Counted from the first letter of the stretch, positions 1,636 through 58,283 are shown. The stretch: DNA of 64,000 bases from an uncultured Bordetella sp. (GCA_964486865.1 CAZAOZ010000002.1:98352-162351); one strand, 5' to 3'. Translations and numbers: made by a program. The notes: generated from the sequence alone by a model not told the origin.

Positions 1636-1649
<14 letters not shown>
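1588..1649 (-). terminator. 29-bp perfect inverted repeat (4-nt loop) downstream of, and overlapping, the tRNA-Ala 3' end
   Basis: CCTCCACTCCACCAAATACAAAAGCCGCC-ctgc-GGCGGCTTTTGTATTTGGTGGAGTGGAGG. The inner 15 bp plus the U-run form a terminator-like hairpin for the minus-strand tRNA transcript. The outer 14 nt duplicate the tRNA 3' end in inverted orientation. Confidence 0.6.
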
Positions 1650-1711
<62 letters not shown>

Positions 1712-5696: not shown

Positions 5697-5837
5697 CTAT
5701 AAAATATCTTTCAGTAACAATGACTTAAACAAGAACCCGGCAAGCGACCCGCAGAAATTCGACAAGCACTCACTGCAAAATCCGGCGGCAGCCGCAGCGT
5801 TGCACGCCATACTGAATGAACACACCACGGAGCCTTC

Positions 5838-7097
<1,260 letters not shown>

Positions 7098-33140: not shown

Positions 33141-33908
33141 ATGTCATCCGCGCCCCCTCCACCTGATCCCGCCACGGCGGGGAAAATCCGCCTGTCCAAG
33201 CTGATGTCGGAGCAGGGTTTGTGCTCGAGGCGCGAAGCCGATGTCTATATTGAACGCGGCTGGGTGCTGGTCGATGATGTGCCGGTCACCGAACTCGGCA
33301 CCCGCATCTGGCCGACGCAGAAAATCACGCTGACCGCCGCCGCGAAAAAACAGCAGCAGGCGCGGGTCACCATTCTGATCCACAAACCGATCGGCTTTGT
33401 ATCGGGCCAGGCTGAAGACAACCACCGCCCGGCCGTCACGCTGGTCACCGCCCAGACCCAGTACCGCAGCGAGCGCGATGCGCCGCGCTTCGATCCGCGC
33501 CACTTGATCGGCCTGGCGCCCGCCGGACGGCTCGACATCGATTCCACCGGCCTGCTGGTGCTGACCCAGGACGGCCGTATCGCCAAACAATTGATCGGCG
33601 AAAACTCGCGGGTGGAAAAAGAATATCTGGTGCGCGTCACCGGCACGCTGTCGAAAGAAAATCTCGCGTTGCTCAATCACGGCCTCTCGCTGGACGGTGA
33701 AGCCCTGCGGCCCGCCGAGGTGTCATGGCAGAACGAGGACCAACTGCGCTTTGTGCTGCGGCAGGGCAAAAAGCGCCAGATCCGCCGCATGTGCGAACTG
33801 GTCGGGCTGACCGTCACCGGTCTGAAACGCGTGCGCATCGGCAATGTCATGCTCGGCAACCTGCCCGTCGGGCTGTGGCGCTACCTGCGCGAGGACGAGC
33901 AGTTCTGA
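33141..33908 (+). CDS. rRNA pseudouridine synthase (RsuA/RluB/E/F family) with S4 domain
   Basis: S4 domain IRLSKLMSEQGLCSRREADVYIERGWVLVD, then the catalytic region GRLDIDSTGLLVLTQDG and KEYLVRV...GKKRQIRRM. Confidence 0.85.
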   Translation: MSSAPPPPDPATAGKIRLSKLMSEQGLCSRREADVYIERGWVLVDDVPVTELGTRIWPTQKITLTAAAKKQQQARVTILIHKPIGFVSGQAEDNHRPAVTLVTAQTQYRSERDAPRFDPRHLIGLAPAGRLDIDSTGLLVLTQDGRIAKQLIGENSRVEKEYLVRVTGTLSKENLALLNHGLSLDGEALRPAEVSWQNEDQLRFVLRQGKKRQIRRMCELVGLTVTGLKRVRIGNVMLGNLPVGLWRYLREDEQF

Positions 33909-33922
33909 ACAAAAAGCTATTA

Positions 33923-34062
33923 GCCACAGAGAACACAGAGTTCACAGAGAAAAAGCAAGAACATGGGGCATTTCCACATCCCACCAATCTGGTGAGGGTA
34001 GCGTGAGGATTCGACTCCTTGAATCTCTCGGTGTTCTCTGTGACCTCTGTGACCTCTGTGGC
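33923..34062. repeat. CACAGAG-nonamer palindromic element, copy 1
   Basis: Left arm GCCACAGAG AACACAGAG TTCACAGAG (33923-33949). Right arm CTCTGTGAC CTCTGTGAC CTCTGTGGC (34036-34062). 86-bp unique core. The flanks AAAAAGC..TTA / ..CGTTTTAAG are also weakly complementary. Confidence 0.85.
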
Positions 34063-34099
34063 CGAATTGCCGTTTTAAGGCTGAAACCGCCGCCCTGGA

Positions 34100-38102: not shown

Positions 38103-39083
38103 TCAGTCCAACTCCTCGCCCGACCCCGCCGCCGCCCGGTTCAACCGATCCCGAATCGCATACCACTCAGCCATCTCCGGCGGCTGCTCGACTAGAATCG
38201 CGTCGCAGCCGGCATGGTCGAGTTCGCGCAGGTTGGCGTAGAGATCATGCGCATAACCTGTGGCATCCGCGGGCGCGGCAAGCCACACCAGTCCATCGAT
38301 CACCGGCCGCAGCGTAGTGCGCGCCAGCACCGCGACGCGTTTGCCCTGGCGCGTCAGGCTGTGCGCGAGTTCATTGGTGAGATCGCCTTCCATCAGCAGC
38401 AGCGGCGTTTGCGGCGCGTAGTGTTTGTCCAGCGAGCCCGACACGCGCGGGGCGCCGGCATCGGGCGCGGCGAGCGGCGCGCCGAGTGCGGCCTCCAGTT
38501 GTTGCGGCGTGATCCAGCCGGGGCGCAGCAGCGTGGGCGCTGCACGCGAGCAATCGACGATGGTGGATTCGATGCCGACATCGGACGCGCCGCCGTCGAG
38601 CACGCAGGCCACGCTGTCGCCGAATTCTTCGCGCACGTGGGCTGCGGTGGTCGCCGATACGCGGCCGAAACGATTCGCCGAGGGCGCGGCGACGCCGCCG
38701 CCGAATTCGCGCAACAACGCCTGCGCCACCGGATGCGCCGGCACGCGGATGGCGACGGTGTCCTGCCCGCCGGTCACTTCATTGGGAACGCGCGAGTGGC
38801 GTTTCAATACCAGCGTCAGCGGGCCGGGCCAGAATTGCTTTGCGAGTTTATGCGCCGCCGGCGGAATCTCGCGCGCCCAGTTGGCCAGCTGCACCGCGTC
38901 GGCGACATGCACGATCAGCGGATGATCGGCGGGCCGGCCCTTGGCCGCGAAGATTTTGCGCACGGCAGCGGCGTTTGATGCGTCGGCGCCGAGGCCATAG
39001 ACGGTCTCGGTGGGAAAGGCGACGAGTTCGCCGGCTTTGAGGACGGCTACGGCGCGGGTGATATCGGCGGCGGAAACAGTCAT
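38103..39083 (-). CDS. tsaC: L-threonylcarbamoyladenylate synthase, long (YrdC + Sua5 domain) form
   Basis: VAFPTETVYGLGADA...KGRPADHPLIVHV...PGPLTLVL...VAIRVPAHP...PSANRFG, plus a ~120-aa Sua5 C-terminal domain. Confidence 0.9.
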   Translation of the reverse strand: MTVSAADITRAVAVLKAGELVAFPTETVYGLGADASNAAAVRKIFAAKGRPADHPLIVHVADAVQLANWAREIPPAAHKLAKQFWPGPLTLVLKRHSRVPNEVTGGQDTVAIRVPAHPVAQALLREFGGGVAAPSANRFGRVSATTAAHVREEFGDSVACVLDGGASDVGIESTIVDCSRAAPTLLRPGWITPQQLEAALGAPLAAPDAGAPRVSGSLDKHYAPQTPLLLMEGDLTNELAHSLTRQGKRVAVLARTTLRPVIDGLVWLAAPADATGYAHDLYANLRELDHAGCDAILVEQPPEMAEWYAIRDRLNRAAAGSGEELD

Positions 39084-39146: not shown

Positions 39147-39186
39147 TGGTGGCCAGGCATGAAAAAGCAAAAGCGAAAGGCTTTTA

Positions 39187-39298
39187 GCCACAGAGTTCAC
39201 AGAGAGCACAGAGAACTGCAAACCCGGAATCACCCCGGACACTTACGCGTGCGCAACAACGATTGCGGGGGCTTGTTTTTCTCTGTGGCCTCTGTGGC
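39187..39298. repeat. CACAGAG-nonamer palindromic element, copy 2
   Basis: Left arm GCCACAGAG TTCACAGAG AGCACAGAG (39187-39213). Right arm CTCTGTGGC CTCTGTGGC (39281-39298), preceded by a degenerate unit. The outer flanks AAAGCGAAAGGCTTTTA / TAAGGGGTTTCCGCTTT are complementary. Confidence 0.85.
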
Positions 39299-39313
39299 TA
39301 AGGGGTTTCCGCT

Positions 39314-40492
39314 TTAAATCGCCGCCAAAGGCTTGAATTGCTTGCCCAGCTTCAGCCCCTGCGACTGGTAGTTCGAGCCGATGTGCACGCCGTAGATTTT
39401 TTCCGGCTCGCCGAGCAGGCGTTCGTAGAGCAGGCGGCCGACGTCCTGGCCGTGTTCGATCAGGAACGGCACGTCGTGCGAGCGCACTTCGAGCACCGCG
39501 CGCGCGCCGTTGACGTCGTTGGCGCCGTAACCGAAACCGGGATCGAAAAAACCGGCGTAGTGAATGCGGAATTCGCCGACCGACGGGTCGTAGGGCACCA
39601 TCGACGCCGCGAAATCCGACGGGATGCGGATGCGCTCGCGCGACACCAGGATGTAGAAGTCGTCCGGGTTCAGCACCAGGCTGCGGTCGGGCGTGCGCGC
39701 GATCGGCTCCCAGAATTCCAGCGGATCGTAATGATTGATCTGCGACAAATCGATCAACGGCGCGTGGCGTTTGGCGCGGTAACCGATGACGCCGTGGCTG
39801 GTGTCGCCCTCGAGGTCCACCGAAATCCACAAACCATTCTTGATCATGGCCGGCAACGGGCCTTCGGTGTCTGAATAGACCAGCCGCAGGGTCTGGTCGA
39901 GTTCGTCGAGCTTGGTGTCGGAAGGCGGCGGTTTGCCGCGGACAAAACGAATCTGGTTCAGCCGCGTGCCCTGCTGCGCCAGCACGCTGAAAGTGTGCGG
40001 CATGATTTCCACATACAGCTTGCCCTTGTAACCCGCGGCCACGCCTTCGAATTCGGCGCCGGCATCGGTGATCAGCCGCGTGAATATGTCCAGCCGCCCG
40101 GTGGAGCTTTTCGGATTGGCGCGGCCCGAGATGTCGGCGGGCAGCTTCAGTTCTTCCATCAGTTCGGCGATATAGACGCAGCCCTTCTCCAGCACCACGG
40201 GCCTGGTCAGGTCGATCTGGTGCATTTTCATGCGGTCGATTTTCGCCTGCACCGTCGAGGTCTTGCCGGGCAGGAAACTCGCGCGCACGCGCCACGCGGT
40301 CGCACCCAGCCGCAGATCAAGGCTCGCCGGCTGGATCTGCGATTCATCCACGCCGCCCGCGGCGCTGATGCGGCCGCCGGCGATCAGCTTGGCGATGTCC
40401 TGATAGGGCAGGATGCCGGTGGTCACGCCGGCAGCCTTGCGATCCTTCTCCAGCTCCGGGAACAGCTTGCCTGCGTCGCGTTTCATGCTCAT
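39314..40492 (-). CDS. 2'-deoxycytidine 5'-triphosphate deaminase, long DCD-family form
   Basis: ORF 39314..40639 trimmed to ATG 40492 (MSMKRDAGKLFPELEK...GILPYQDI...QPASLDLRLG...NPKSSTGRLDIFTR...). This is a duplicated dUTPase-like fold. Confidence 0.7.
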   Translation of the reverse strand: MSMKRDAGKLFPELEKDRKAAGVTTGILPYQDIAKLIAGGRISAAGGVDESQIQPASLDLRLGATAWRVRASFLPGKTSTVQAKIDRMKMHQIDLTRPVVLEKGCVYIAELMEELKLPADISGRANPKSSTGRLDIFTRLITDAGAEFEGVAAGYKGKLYVEIMPHTFSVLAQQGTRLNQIRFVRGKPPPSDTKLDELDQTLRLVYSDTEGPLPAMIKNGLWISVDLEGDTSHGVIGYRAKRHAPLIDLSQINHYDPLEFWEPIARTPDRSLVLNPDDFYILVSRERIRIPSDFAASMVPYDPSVGEFRIHYAGFFDPGFGYGANDVNGARAVLEVRSHDVPFLIEHGQDVGRLLYERLLGEPEKIYGVHIGSNYQSQGLKLGKQFKPLAAI

Positions 40493-40499
40493 GTTTCCT

Positions 40500-41393
40500 T
40501 CAGGTGCCCAGCAGCATGCGCTGCGCTTCGCGGTATTTGGCGGCGGTTTTTGCCAGCACCTCGGCGGGCAGCCGCGGCGCCGGCGGTTTTTTGTTCCACG
40601 GCTGGGTTTCCAGCCAGTCGCGCACAAACTGCTTGTCAAAACTCGGCGGGCTGATGCCAGTGCGGTATTCGGCGGCGGGCCAGAAACGCGATGAATCGGG
40701 GGTCAGCGCCTCGTCGATCAGCACGATGTTGCCCGCGCCATCCTCGCCGAATTCAAACTTGGTGTCGGCGATGATGATGCCACGCGTGGCGGCAAAAGCC
40801 GCTGCTTCCTGATAAAGCCGGATGGATATGTCGCGCACCTTGGCGGCATGCGCGGCGCCGACGGTGGCCACCACATCGTCATAGGTAATGTTCTCGTCGT
40901 GCTGTCCCGCGGGCGCTTTGGAAGCCGGCGTAAAAATCGGCTCGGCAAGTTTCTCCGCCTGTTTCATGCCGGCGGGCAGTTTAATGCCGCAAATCGCGCC
41001 GGTGTTCCGGTAATCGTTCCAGCCCGAGCCGATGAGATAACCGCGCACCACGGCCTCGACCATCAGCGGTTTGTATTTATGGACCACCATCGCGCGGCCC
41101 TCAATCTGCGCACGTTCCTCCGGCGCCACCACCGTTGCGGGATCGATCCCGGTCAGATGATTCGGTACGATGTGCTTCAGCTTGTCGAACCAGAACTGCG
41201 ACAACTCGGTCAGCACGCGGCCCTTGCCGGGAATCGGATCATCGAGAATCACGTCGAAGGCGGACAGCCGGTCGCTTTGCACCACCAGCAGCTTGTCGTC
41301 GCCGACGGCGTAGAGGTCGCGCACCTTGCCGCGGTGCAGGAAGGGCAGGCTTTTGAGGCTGGATTGGTACAGCGGCGTGTCGGCGTTGCTCAT
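40500..41393 (-). CDS. purC: Phosphoribosylaminoimidazole-succinocarboxamide synthase
   Basis: [29 protein letters not shown]...IADTKFEFG...[14 protein letters not shown]. Confidence 0.95.
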
Positions 41394-41409
41394 TGCGGAT
41401 CCGGTTTGT

Positions 41410-42546
41410 TCAGTCTTTCCAGTCGGGATACAGAGCGCCGCGCACGATCAGCGCCTTTTGCAGCGCGGCATCGGGCGTTGCGCCGAGTACCGTGTAATGA
41501 CCCATTTTGCGGCCGGTGCGCGCTTCGTGTTTGGCATAGAGATGCAGTTTGGCTTCCGGCACGTTGAACACCCGCTCCCACCGCGGCTGGCCATGCTGCC
41601 AGGCCTCGCCCAGCAGGTTGACCATCACCACCGGCGACAACAGGCGCGGGTCGCCCAGCGGCAAACCGCACAGCGTGCGCACCTGCTGCTCGAACTGCGA
41701 AGTCGCGCAGGCGTCGATGGTGTAGTGGCCGCTGTTGTGCGGGCGCGGCGCCATTTCATTGGCGAGCAGCGCGCCGGATTCGGTGACAAAGAACTCCACC
41801 GCGAGCACGCCGCAGTAGTCGAGTTTCGCCGCGACGGTCAACGCCCACTGTTCCGTGCGCTGCGCGAGTTCCGGCGCGACACGGGCGGGCGCGATGCTGA
41901 TATCCAGGATGCCGTTGCGGTGCCGGTTCTCCGCCACCGGAAACGCGCGCCCTGCGCCGTCGGCGCCGCGGGCAACCACCGCGGAAATCTCGCATCTGAG
42001 CGCGATGCGCTGTTCGAGCACGCAGGATTCGGCGCCCATGTCGATGAAAGCGCGGCGCGCTTCCGCGGCATCGGCAACACGTGCCTGGCCCTTGCCGTCG
42101 TAGCCGAAACGCGCGCGCTTGAGGATGCCGGGAAACAGTGTTGCGTCGGCCTGCGCAAGATCGGCTTCGCGTTCGATCACCGCATACGGCGCGACGTCCA
42201 GCCCGCAGGAACGGAAAAACGCTTTTTCGCGGATACGATCCTGCGCCACGGCCACCGCATCCCCCGCGGGCCGCACCGCGCAATGGCTGGCCAGCCAGCG
42301 CAGACTGTCGGCGGGCACGTTCTCGAATTCGGTGGTGACGGCAGCACAGGTGTCGGCGAGCTGCTGCAGCGCCTCGCGATCCTGGTACGCGGCCTTCAGA
42401 TGCACGTCGGCGATGGCGCCGGCGGGACTCAGCGGATCGGGATCGAGCACGGTGACGCGATAACCCATGCTGTGCGCGGCCAGCGTGAACATGCGGCCCA
42501 GTTGCCCGCCGCCCAGCATGCCGAGCATGGCGTCCGGAAAGATCAT
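41410..42546 (-). CDS. purK: N5-carboxyaminoimidazole ribonucleotide synthase
   Basis: [13 protein letters not shown] followed by an ATP-grasp body (GYDGKGQ...VLAVEFF...[12 protein letters not shown]). Confidence 0.9.
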
Positions 42547-42564
42547 GATGAAAAAGCCAAATCA

Positions 42565-42695
42565 GCCACAGAGGCCACAGAGTTCACAGAGGGTTCGCCG
42601 GTGGTTTGACGGTATCTGCACTGAGTTACCGCCTGCCGATAATTCGAGAACAAAGCAGATCGGGTTTTCTCTGCGTCCTCTGCGCCCTCTGTGGC
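42565..42695. repeat. CACAGAG-nonamer palindromic element, copy 3 (between purE and purK)
   Basis: Left arm GCCACAGAG GCCACAGAG TTCACAGAG (42565-42591). Right arm CTCTGCGTC CTCTGCGCC CTCTGTGGC (42669-42695). It fills essentially the whole purE-purK spacer. Confidence 0.85.
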
Positions 42696-42713
42696 AAAAA
42701 AGGTTTTCGCTTT

Positions 42714-43211
42714 TCATTTTTTCTTTTGCGGCAATTTCATCGCGCGAACCTTCGCCGTCTGCTTTTTGCGGAAGACGGTGAGTTTTTTCGCGAGCTTCGC
42801 GTCTTCGCACGCCAGCATCGCCACGGCAAACAAGCCGGCGTTGGCCGCGCCCGCCTCGCCGACGGCAAAGGTCGCCACCGGTATGCCCTTGGGCATCTGC
42901 ACGATGGACAGCAATGAATCGAGGCCCCGCATGCTACTCGAGGTGACGGGCACGCCGAGCACCGGCACGATGGTCTTGGCAGCGAGCATGCCCGGCAGAT
43001 GCGCCGAGCCGCCGGCACCGGCGATGATGCATTTGAGGCCGCGCGCGGCTGCCTGTTCGGCGTAGCGGTAGAGCAGATCCGGGGTGCGGTGCGCGGACAC
43101 CACCTGCGCTTCGCAGGGCACACCGAACTGCCCGATCATATCGACGGCATGCTGCATCACGTTCCAGTCGCTCTGACTGCCCATGACGATGCCGATCAGC
43201 GGTTTTTTCAC
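42714..43211 (-). CDS. purE: N5-carboxyaminoimidazole ribonucleotide mutase
   Basis: [17 protein letters not shown]...SAHRTPD...[14 protein letters not shown]...PVLGVPV. Confidence 0.95.
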
Positions 43212-48863: not shown

Positions 48864-48873
48864 AAACCTTTTA

Positions 48874-48976
48874 GCCACAGAGGTCACAGAGAGCACAGAG
48901 AACTTCAAAAACTGAAAATCAGGAACAGCGTTCGGGCTTTCCGGGTTTTCTCTGTGAACTCTGTGTCCTCTGTGGC
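48874..48976. repeat. CACAGAG-nonamer palindromic element, copy 4
   Basis: Left arm GCCACAGAG GTCACAGAG AGCACAGAG (48874-48900). Right arm CTCTGTGAA CTCTGTGTC CTCTGTGGC (48950-48976). It lies between the acyl-CoA dehydrogenase stop and the acyl-CoA synthetase start. Confidence 0.85.
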
Positions 48977-48999
48977 CAGCGCCTTTGACTTTGACTTTC

Positions 49000-58134: not shown

Positions 58135-58149
58135 CCCTTAAAACCTTTA

Positions 58150-58252
58150 GCCACAGAGGCCACAGAGAACACAGAGAACCCCGAAGACAAGAACACAAAA
58201 AGTTGCTGGTTTGCTTTTCGCTTTTCTCTGTGTTCTCTGTGCTCTCTGTGGC
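58150..58252. repeat. CACAGAG-nonamer palindromic element, copy 5 (between leuC and leuD)
   Basis: Left arm GCCACAGAG GCCACAGAG AACACAGAG (58150-58176). Right arm CTCTGTGTT CTCTGTGCT CTCTGTGGC (58226-58252). The arms pair over 27 bp with two mismatches. Confidence 0.85.
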
Positions 58253-58283
58253 CAAGCTTCTGCTTTTGAACCAATACTCGACT

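Follow-up and report, generated by a model that had tools for sequence, protein, structure and literature searches.

What are the five palindromic elements that stand between ordinary housekeeping genes in a stretch of Burkholderiales DNA, and how did they come to lie there? Few parts of bacterial genomes are as poorly understood as their small intergenic repeats (REP, MITE, STRR). The stretch analysed here, called the window throughout, is 64,000 nucleotides long with 64% G+C and belongs to a 190-kb contig of a Burkholderiales MAG. Pfam places the genes around the elements, as well as 30 further proteins of the window, among ordinary housekeeping functions. All five palindromes were found again where a first-pass annotation had placed them, through reading of the regions and an inverted-repeat scan, which gave the following limits and parts.

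Element 1, 33909-34080, unstranded: between two convergent genes, one rluA-like (stop 33908) and one of 301 aa (stop 34100) to which Pfam assigned no function; outer flank 33909-33922, left arm 33923-33949, core 33950-34026, right arm 34027-34062 with four units (three at 34036-34062 and an additional, innermost and degenerate unit, CTCGGTG, at 34027), outer flank 34063-34080.
Element 2, 39169-39313, unstranded: flanked by a dCTP-deaminase-like gene on the minus strand that stops at 39314-39316 and by tsaC/sua5, also on the minus strand, which starts at 39083; left arm 39187-39213, core 39214-39280, right arm 39281-39298 with two units only; outer flanks AAAGCGAAAGGCTTTTA and TAAGGGGTTTCCGCTTT; computed RNA fold -62.2 kcal/mol, z -5.4.
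Element 3, 42547-42713, unstranded: 167 nt inserted between two minus-strand genes, purE (stop 42714) and purK (start 42546), with ATGA on both sides; arms 42565-42591 and 42669-42695, two units of the second reading CTCTGCG; RNA fold -67.2 kcal/mol, z -4.9.
Element 4, 48864-48989, unstranded: between an acyl-CoA dehydrogenase gene (stop 48863) and an ADP-forming acetyl-CoA-synthetase-like gene (ATG 49000); arms 48874-48900 and 48950-48976, with a 49-nt core that holds a small hairpin and a T-run; RNA fold -57.8 kcal/mol, z -5.8.
Element 5, 58135-58270, unstranded: between leuC (stop 58134) and leuD (ATG 58284); arms 58150-58176 and 58226-58252, core 49 nt; RNA fold -62 kcal/mol, z -7.9.

The arms of all five elements consist of about three NNCACAGAG units with GCC outermost. 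The left arm follows the plan GCCACAGAG-NNCACAGAG-NNCACAGAG, and the inverted right arm ends in CTCTGTGGC. The first-pass annotation had described three tandem nonamers in each arm, which is true of every left arm but not of the two-unit right arm of element 2, nor strictly of the right arm of element 3 with its two CTCTGCG units. Its description of the cores as 49-86 bp long with little or no mutual similarity stands: they measure 86, 67, 77, 49 and 49 nt, and nothing significant was found among the five or against about 100 other cores. The outer flanks, noted earlier as mutually complementary, have a symmetric profile of an A-rich tract, C, TTTTA and then GCC, both in the window and in 72 elements of other genomes, and when they are counted the inverted ends extend to about 45 nt. 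The heptamer CACAGAG occurs 28 times in the window against an expected 4.7 +/- 1.9, with 27 of the 28 copies inside the five elements, and the double nonamer gives 19 matches where 0.01 are expected. The arm's GCC begins 10-18 nt past a stop codon in 5/5 elements, which bears out the earlier remark on placement right after stop codons. An assembly artefact had also been considered, but element 3 is base-for-base the same in three independent assemblies (the window contig, ENA ERZ27247817 and Logan ERR3094294), and the elements are therefore not artefacts of this kind.

The window also holds repeats of other kinds. Positions 1287-1555 comprise about 270 nt of nested inverted repeats, with perfect pairs of 27 nt (1287-1313/1529-1555) and 19 nt (1323-1341/1395-1413) and a 24-nt pair at 83% (1426-1449/1501-1524), and have no Rfam match. 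A perfect 29-nt hairpin with a 4-nt loop follows at 1588-1649; one of its arms overlaps a tRNA gene (1639-1711, minus strand) at the 3′ acceptor end and CCA, so that the tRNA 3′ end is repeated in inverted form around a terminator-like GCCGCC/GGCGGC-TTTT core. At 7061-7086, eight to nine CAG triplets lie at the 3′ end of a periplasmic-binding-protein ORF (5820-7097).

Comparison with relatives shows that the elements are insertions, polymorphic at the strain level. In six relatives (L225-L230; purK 74-78% identity), purE and purK either overlap or are separated by at most 10 nt, whereas in the window 167 nt separate them, flanks included; the outer flanks of roughly 13-18 nt belong to the inserted DNA. 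Element 1 is missing in four scaffolds (L316-L319) with a 99% identical RluA. At its site these scaffolds have GTTCTGAAGTTCTGAA, an 8-bp tandem duplication in which GTTCTGAA is followed directly by a second GTTCTGAA, and the window has GTTCTGAA, the element and then GCTGAA; in wider context, the scaffolds read ...CAGTTCTGAAGTTCTGAAACCGCC... and the window ...CAGTTCTGAA, 172 nt and GCTGAAACCGCC.... A direct repeat, CTGAA, is found at 33904-33908 and 34082-34086. The 8-bp duplication is a single case, and its right-hand copy is imperfect in the window; it resembles a target duplication, or else the footprint of an excision that retained both copies, and insertion between pre-existing duplicates is the alternative. 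Under either reading, element 1 is strain-polymorphic and lies between direct repeats at least 5 bp long. Empty sites, which the first-pass annotation had suggested seeking in related strains, exist for element 1. The search for target-site duplications, suggested there as well, had a divided outcome: the repeats at element 1 are as just described, but across elements no consistent duplication adjoins GCC (k>=3 in 2/72 elements). TA stood on both sides of 11/72, not above the prediction from flank composition, and this 72-element flank test was negative for an IS630-like TA or other duplication next to GCC, although the true ends of the copies other than element 1 are uncertain.

The same sites differ further among relatives. 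GCA_975043665.1 (L313; RluA 94% identical) has no arms in 42 kb, and its element 1 site is a 22-nt spacer with one octamer copy and no element; altogether, the motif is missing from 42 kb and a further 27 kb of syntenic DNA in close relatives. The arm-free relatives also include the BUSI22-1 scaffolds. At the sites of elements 2 and 5, GCA_975043665.1 holds a different repeat (GGGTTAGGGTGAGGG / CCCTCTCCC...GGGAGAGGG), absent from the window. In L312, L320 and L321 the element 5 site is likewise occupied by a repeat other than the window's (CCCTCTCCC...GGGTGAGGG); scaffolds with a 96% identical LeuD show this replacement. This other intergenic repeat of the close relatives was located at L312:11405-11542, L313:13614-13795 and L320:673-707 (leuC/leuD and dcd/tsaC sites), and the core of element 1 holds a sequence similar to it, GGTGAGGGTAGCGTGAGG. 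GCA_975043665.1 has purC straight after purE, without an intervening purK (L313:14994-16425, set against window 40500-43211); the order purE-purK-purC is that of the window and of more distant relatives. A syntenic metagenome contig (L230) carries elements of the same plan built from CGCAGAG units at the acd/acs site and upstream of tsaC, as well as a third element between purK and purC, where the window has just 16 nt. One more locus has a CACGAAG(GA) version.

The family extends well beyond this window, to many phyla and to phages. An exact scan for GCCACAGAGNNCACAGAGNNCACAGAG over one genome per species (596 Gb) gave at least 118 genome loci, where a calculation for the 23 specified bases predicts ~0.02 matches by chance. 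By the record titles among the matches listed, the same architecture occurs in at least eight phyla. The matches listed include Betaproteobacteria (Gallionella, Sideroxydans, Sulfuricella, Nitrosomonadales, Methylophilus and Burkholderiales), Gammaproteobacteria, many Planctomycetota, Acidobacteriota (Pyrinomonadaceae and Aminicenantes), Chloroflexota, Calditrichota, Nitrospirota, Abditibacteriota, Verrucomicrobiota, Bacteroidota and Bacillota. Several of those listed lie on contigs or chromosomes of 0.5-5 Mb, some of them above 1 Mb. Two carriers are cultured, namely Methylophilus luteus CCUG 58412, found by the scan, and Gemmatirosa kalamazoonensis KBS708, which provided the one BLAST match in the plasmid collection. 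The latter match is on NZ_CP007129.1, a 1.1-Mb replicon in which BLAST reported six places. Matches in Streptomyces SM11 (L013) and Vicinamibacterales (L025) are tandem 9-mers in G+C-rich, probably coding sequence and were set aside as probably unrelated. A Methanosarcinaceae match lies on a 3.9-kb MAG contig that may be mis-binned. Among IMG/VR viral contigs, 104 stretches match the same pattern; the arm-bearing contigs have portal, terminase and capsid genes in common, and one 44-kb phage has at least 12 arms. The arm-rich phages include IMGVR_UViG_3300031565_000084. BLAST of the cultured phage collection gave no match to the arm pattern.

Across this sample, the plan seen in the window recurs in about 80 loci, with cores from 4 to ~230 nt. 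Partner arms mostly have three units within a range of 2-8, and in two elements an arm of eight faces one of three. Polarity is strict: 73 of 92 adjacent arm pairs in the genome loci among the matches listed are a CACAGAG run followed within 250 nt by a CTCTGTG run, with GCC outward, and only two have the opposite order at short range. The outermost NN is GC in 46/47 left arms and 43/47 right arms, and internal NN are purine-first in 83% (GA, AT, AA, AG, GG and GT, read in the CACAGAG sense in both arms). The flanks of the 72 elements are A-rich at -12 to -7, followed by C, a T-rich stretch and A at -1, on both sides. Most of 105 cores compared are unrelated, even within one genome; a few within-genome paralogue pairs (L209, L057) share arms and core, and their similarity stops at TTAGCC...GGCTAA. 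Elements can also be nested, since in Gemmatirosa the core of a CCGCAGAGGG-type element with a 10-nt period contains a CACAGAG/CACGGAG element (L315:1450-1625, plasmid NZ_CP007129.1 at ~193.4 kb; inner arms ACCACAGAG/GACACGGAG).

In Planctomycetota and phages, arms are frequently solo or in direct order and stand beside other 8-9-mer tandem motifs. These extra motifs, often located between arm and start codon, include CACGGATTA, CACAGATT, CACTGATT, CGCAGATGA, AAATCGNA, AGTCAATAG and GATTTGAAATTT (Planctomycetota and viral loci L069, L074, L075, L049, L038, L171, L128, L154 and L184), which suggests a wider class of tandem-oligomer intergenic modules. Phage contigs also have whole small genes of unrelated kinds flanked by inverted arms. 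Four such genes fill the space between arms (L128:9554-10102, L187:1695-2503, L195:10837-11393 and L192:2692-3026; 151, 172, 168 and 96 aa, mutually unrelated), each with its ATG 1-9 nt from the inner end of an arm, in a cassette-like arrangement. The many ...CACAGAGaaATG cases suggested that phage arms might be 5′ leader or Shine-Dalgarno-like modules. However, start codons within 25 nt were found at the outer (CTCTGTGGC) end of 55 arms against 32, and the orientation of arms between co-directional phage genes was 48 against 26. The translation-leader reading was rejected because starts at the outer end are at least as common and the sense bias is just 48 to 26.

Whether the arms are kept as sequence or as partners in a stem can be judged from their variation. 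After complementing, NN agree between arms in 23% of comparisons against 13% in shuffles, and a similar small excess appears at shifted registers; this agreement is far below what is expected for a selected stem, in keeping with the first-pass statement that NN do not co-vary. Within one arm, 23% of adjacent NN match, where 12.7% would be expected; this points to slippage within arms, a process that had been proposed for them. Where the heptamers of two arms disagree, the mismatch is uncompensated; counted on the sense strand of co-directional genes, 8 are G-U, 12 A-C and 21 other. Both the NN covariation test and the sense-strand comparison of G-U with A-C were thus negative for RNA-level selection. 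Given the lack of NN co-variation, the uncompensated mismatches and a copy number of 2-8, the arm is constrained as sequence and not as a pairing partner. The earlier proposal that it is the heptamer itself which is conserved rather than complementarity is accordingly upheld, also by the eight-unit arm that faces three. Such a mirror-oriented sequence constraint fits DNA recognition better than an RNA stem, and from it we infer binding by a protein. At an apparently orthologous site in two genera (L047 and L114), the heptamers are perfectly kept while NN and core are scrambled, which suggests upkeep beyond simple selfish decay, unless one hot spot was hit twice.

The reading that best accommodates these data, and which is held with slightly more belief than doubt, is that the five elements belong to a non-autonomous mobile family of foldback- or MITE-like type, moved by a putative nonamer-reading protein. 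It is supported by the filled and empty sites, strict polarity, unit copying, nesting, sequence constraint and distribution. Against it stand the lack of a cognate gene among the proteins and loci searched, the lack of a consistent target-site duplication, cores unlike those of ordinary MITE bursts, and the perfectly kept heptamers at the site shared by L047 and L114. The family itself is real and, so far as found, undescribed. At gathering scores, Rfam reported only a tRNA in the whole window, and at E<=10 it gave nothing meaningful around element 1. Full-text literature searches with the nonamer strings and related descriptions returned no paper with the double nonamer. Other short motifs do not fit in spacing, orientation or conserved positions: this applies to the DnaA box (TTATCCACA against TTAGCCACA), sigma-54 -24/-12 and T7/SP6/K11-type promoters, the RSS heptamer CACAGTG, CIRCE and omega-repressor heptads.

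A partner gene was sought in the window and in the fetched loci. The first-pass annotation had seen no transposase or RAYT-like gene in the window, and Pfam and tblastn likewise find no transposase or Y1 gene, no integrase and no integron context among the 40 window proteins scanned. All-against-all ORF clustering of the listed genome loci gave no enriched neighbour family (at most 8/118 loci), and clustering of the viral loci returned phage structural genes and a small zinc-ribbon family in only 14/88 contigs. ORFs of the window had no match among the viral ORFs of arm-rich phages. The cognate RAYT/TnpA-REP or other gene that the annotation had proposed to look for was thus found neither in the window nor in the listed genome loci or viral stretches. 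One Y1_Tnp gene lies exactly between inverted arms, in an Abditibacterium MAG (L094), and was considered as a RAYT. It was rejected as such, since it is part of an IS200-type IS whose ends are conserved and its own, and which occupies four other sites without arms, one of them a second copy in the same genome. Its homologues are 74-94% identical, with the same IS ends and without arms. This IS is ~650 bp long (L094:640-1290, ends TTTATTCTTCTGTGGGTCAATACCCCGCCGCTTGCGGCG ... CCCCGCTGCTCGCGGCGGGGATTCTTTATT; also L305, L306, L308 and L309) and is found once in a CACAGAG core and elsewhere beside other hairpins.

The elements fit none of the known REP/BIME, Correia or attC systems, as had been suspected; Rfam gave no match and the defining features of each are lacking. 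Bacterial MITEs (Correia/NEMIS, ERIC, RUP) share internal sequence and have a recognisable IS origin (summarised in PMC3733652). The present elements resemble them in being 70-300 bp long, non-coding, gene-adjacent and co-transcribed, with terminal inverted repeats and strong hairpins (PMC3733652). Unlike them, they have mostly unrelated cores, down to 4 nt, no regular TA or other duplication adjoining the repeat, and no parent IS seen in the listed 118 genome loci or 104 viral stretches. The annotation had named an ordinary MITE family with a shared core and target-site duplications as an outcome that would refute its reading; the cores do not fit this, and the duplications are as described above. 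Correia/NEMIS (26-bp inverted repeats, TA duplication, IHF site, Neisseria) in particular differs in sequence and hosts. Like attC sites, the elements are imperfect palindromes with conserved ends and a variable centre, located after genes, and phage genes are flanked by arms as cassettes are by attC; unlike here, attC keeps structure and not sequence, has no tandem units and forms arrays beside intI, whereas the elements of the window are flanked by housekeeping genes. As to termination, an intrinsic terminator has a G+C-rich stem with a U-tract immediately behind it. The profile of A-tract, hairpin and T-tract is present, but 5-6 nt separate the T-run from the GGC base of the stem, and a terminator scan flagged only small hairpins inside cores. 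The position of elements 3 and 5 inside purEK and leuCD, operons whose genes are nearly always transcribed together, argues against efficient termination.

Multi-unit ends are known from larger systems. The Drosophila Foldback (FB) element has inverted ends of short repeated units around a variable middle. In Mu, Tn7 and Tn402 ends and in hAT subterminal repeats, each end has several transposase-binding sites, and excision can leave both target copies. These systems are alike in their multi-unit ends, but are themselves eukaryotic or far larger autonomous elements with repeats of ~20 bp, and have no sequence relationship to the present family.

The stable folds invite an explanation at the RNA level, in which the element would be a host-selected cis-acting RNA element of the REP/ERIC/Correia type whose hairpin blocks 3′ exonucleases, offers an RNase III site or uncouples translation, with mobility accounting for its arrival only. 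Position just past a stop codon in 5/5 cases, with elements 3 and 5 inside purEK and leuCD, is what such a role would predict, as are computed folds of -58 to -67 kcal/mol (z -4.9 to -7.9). Relatives hold other hairpin-forming repeats at the same sites, as if a hairpin were tolerated or wanted, and the heptamers are conserved at the site common to L047 and L114. Nevertheless, this explanation is unlikely when set against the absence of NN co-variation, uncompensated heptamer mismatches with no G-U bias on the sense strand, and arms as unequal as eight units against three. Very close strains also live without element 1, a crude ORF call puts about 1/5 of elements between divergent genes, and pairing needs do not explain one heptamer across phyla. 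A double-stranded sequence constraint with dyad symmetry, typically three units per arm and 9-bp spacing is equally what would be seen in chromosomal iteron arrays for a resident nucleoid-associated, partition-like or regulatory protein, in which case they would be host features and not mobile DNA. Conservation of the motif across phyla has parallels in parS and DnaA boxes. That the arrays are such host features is improbable, however, as they are present or absent at the strain level, insert into operons, have a patchy phylogeny, occur on phages, are placed without relation to gene function and are wholly missing over the 42 kb and 27 kb of syntenic DNA in close relatives.

The other two candidates are mobile or repetitive systems already described, each of which shares part of the plan. 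REP units are imperfect palindromes with a GTAG or CGTC tag, and REPINs are inverted doublets of them (PMC3116915; PMC3733652); REPIN-RAYT systems are described as mainly vertically inherited (bioRxiv 10.1101/2021.07.10.451892). A REPIN- or TIRtron-like element moved by a Y1 (HUH) transposase (RAYT/TIRYT) acting on the single-stranded hairpin would account for short intergenic hairpin doublets mostly just 3′ of genes and inside operons, as in REP/BIME/REPIN. REPs and REPINs also have genome-specific variants, an expected hundreds of dispersed copies and single copies that decay (PMC3116915; PMC3733652). Adjacent arms here likewise form inverted doublets (the 73 of 92 listed pairs within 250 nt, with the folds given above), and one Y1_Tnp gene lies exactly between arms in L094. 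That gene is the IS200-type IS with its own ends and four arm-free sites, and neither a further Y1 gene nor a RAYT flanked by arms was found in the window or the fetched loci. The arms are direct tandem nonamer arrays with a GCC terminus instead of self-complementary palindromes of 20-40 nt, their ends read ...TTTA followed by GCCACAGAG with no GTAG/CGTC in the 72-element flank profile, and the same sequence occurs across phyla and on phages, so that this origin is given little credence. Dispersed intergenic heptamer arrays, some in inverted pairs and with no known function, have been documented as (GGGAATC)n in Xanthomonas and as STRR in cyanobacteria, including Nostoc (PMC4692102). These are the nearest precedent for the tandem-unit aspect, with short units of conserved and variable positions set head to tail in variable number (2-8 here). 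The arms might likewise be simple-sequence arrays that arose in place by slippage and inverted duplication with no dedicated protein. The tendency of neighbouring units to share NN would agree with this, as would the other 8-9-mer tandem motifs beside arms in Planctomycetota and phage loci. Yet the present arrays have a 9-nt period, usually three units and an obligatory inverted partner, and the same heptamer, terminal GCC unit and flank profile recur in unrelated phyla with strict polarity. Whole elements including flanks also appear as insertions, and formation in place is accordingly given the least credence of the explanations considered.

If the elements are indeed copies of a mobile family, each end would be a long terminal inverted repeat of four parts: a lineage-specific outer part (here approximately AAAGCGAAAACC-TTTTA), the invariant terminal unit GCCACAGAG, usually two more RNCACAGAG units, and a short A-run. 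The nonamer array would be the DNA recognition site for a putative sequence-specific transposase or recombinase encoded elsewhere, whose chemistry would insert and remove the element as one unit. Replication slippage would cause the number of units to drift, and NN and core, being free of constraint, would drift or be replaced. The heptamer variants CGCAGAG and CACGAAG would mark genome-specific sub-families, and arm-carrying phages could spread the family between lineages. An element inserted just past a stop codon, often in an operon, would be co-transcribed as a hairpin of ~-60 kcal/mol, with a likely effect on mRNA processing as a by-product. A bolder version of this proposal, which is plausible but falls somewhat short of even chances, is that the elements represent an undescribed cross-phylum and phage foldback class with iteron ends (TTAGCCACAGAG plus RNCACAGAG) and a mobiliser that co-evolves with the heptamer in its variants CACAGAG, CGCAGAG, CACGAAG and possibly CACGGAT. 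Since arms on phages flank whole genes, the system may also be shuffling gene cassettes.

Most known small-repeat families do not extend beyond a single genus or family. The present one is marked by a 7-base word, repeated in 9-base steps, that is found in at least eight phyla and in tailed phages, sits inside essential operons and varies among strains that are nearly identical. Short-read assemblies break at the elements, which also put hairpins of ~-60 kcal/mol into mRNAs. With two cultured carriers available, Gemmatirosa kalamazoonensis KBS708 and Methylophilus luteus CCUG 58412, the question is testable. If a dedicated protein recognises the word, it would represent a new system of mobilisation or DNA recognition whose modular target is unusually simple; if there is no such protein, the family poses the sharp question of how so short a word stays intact amid changing surroundings.
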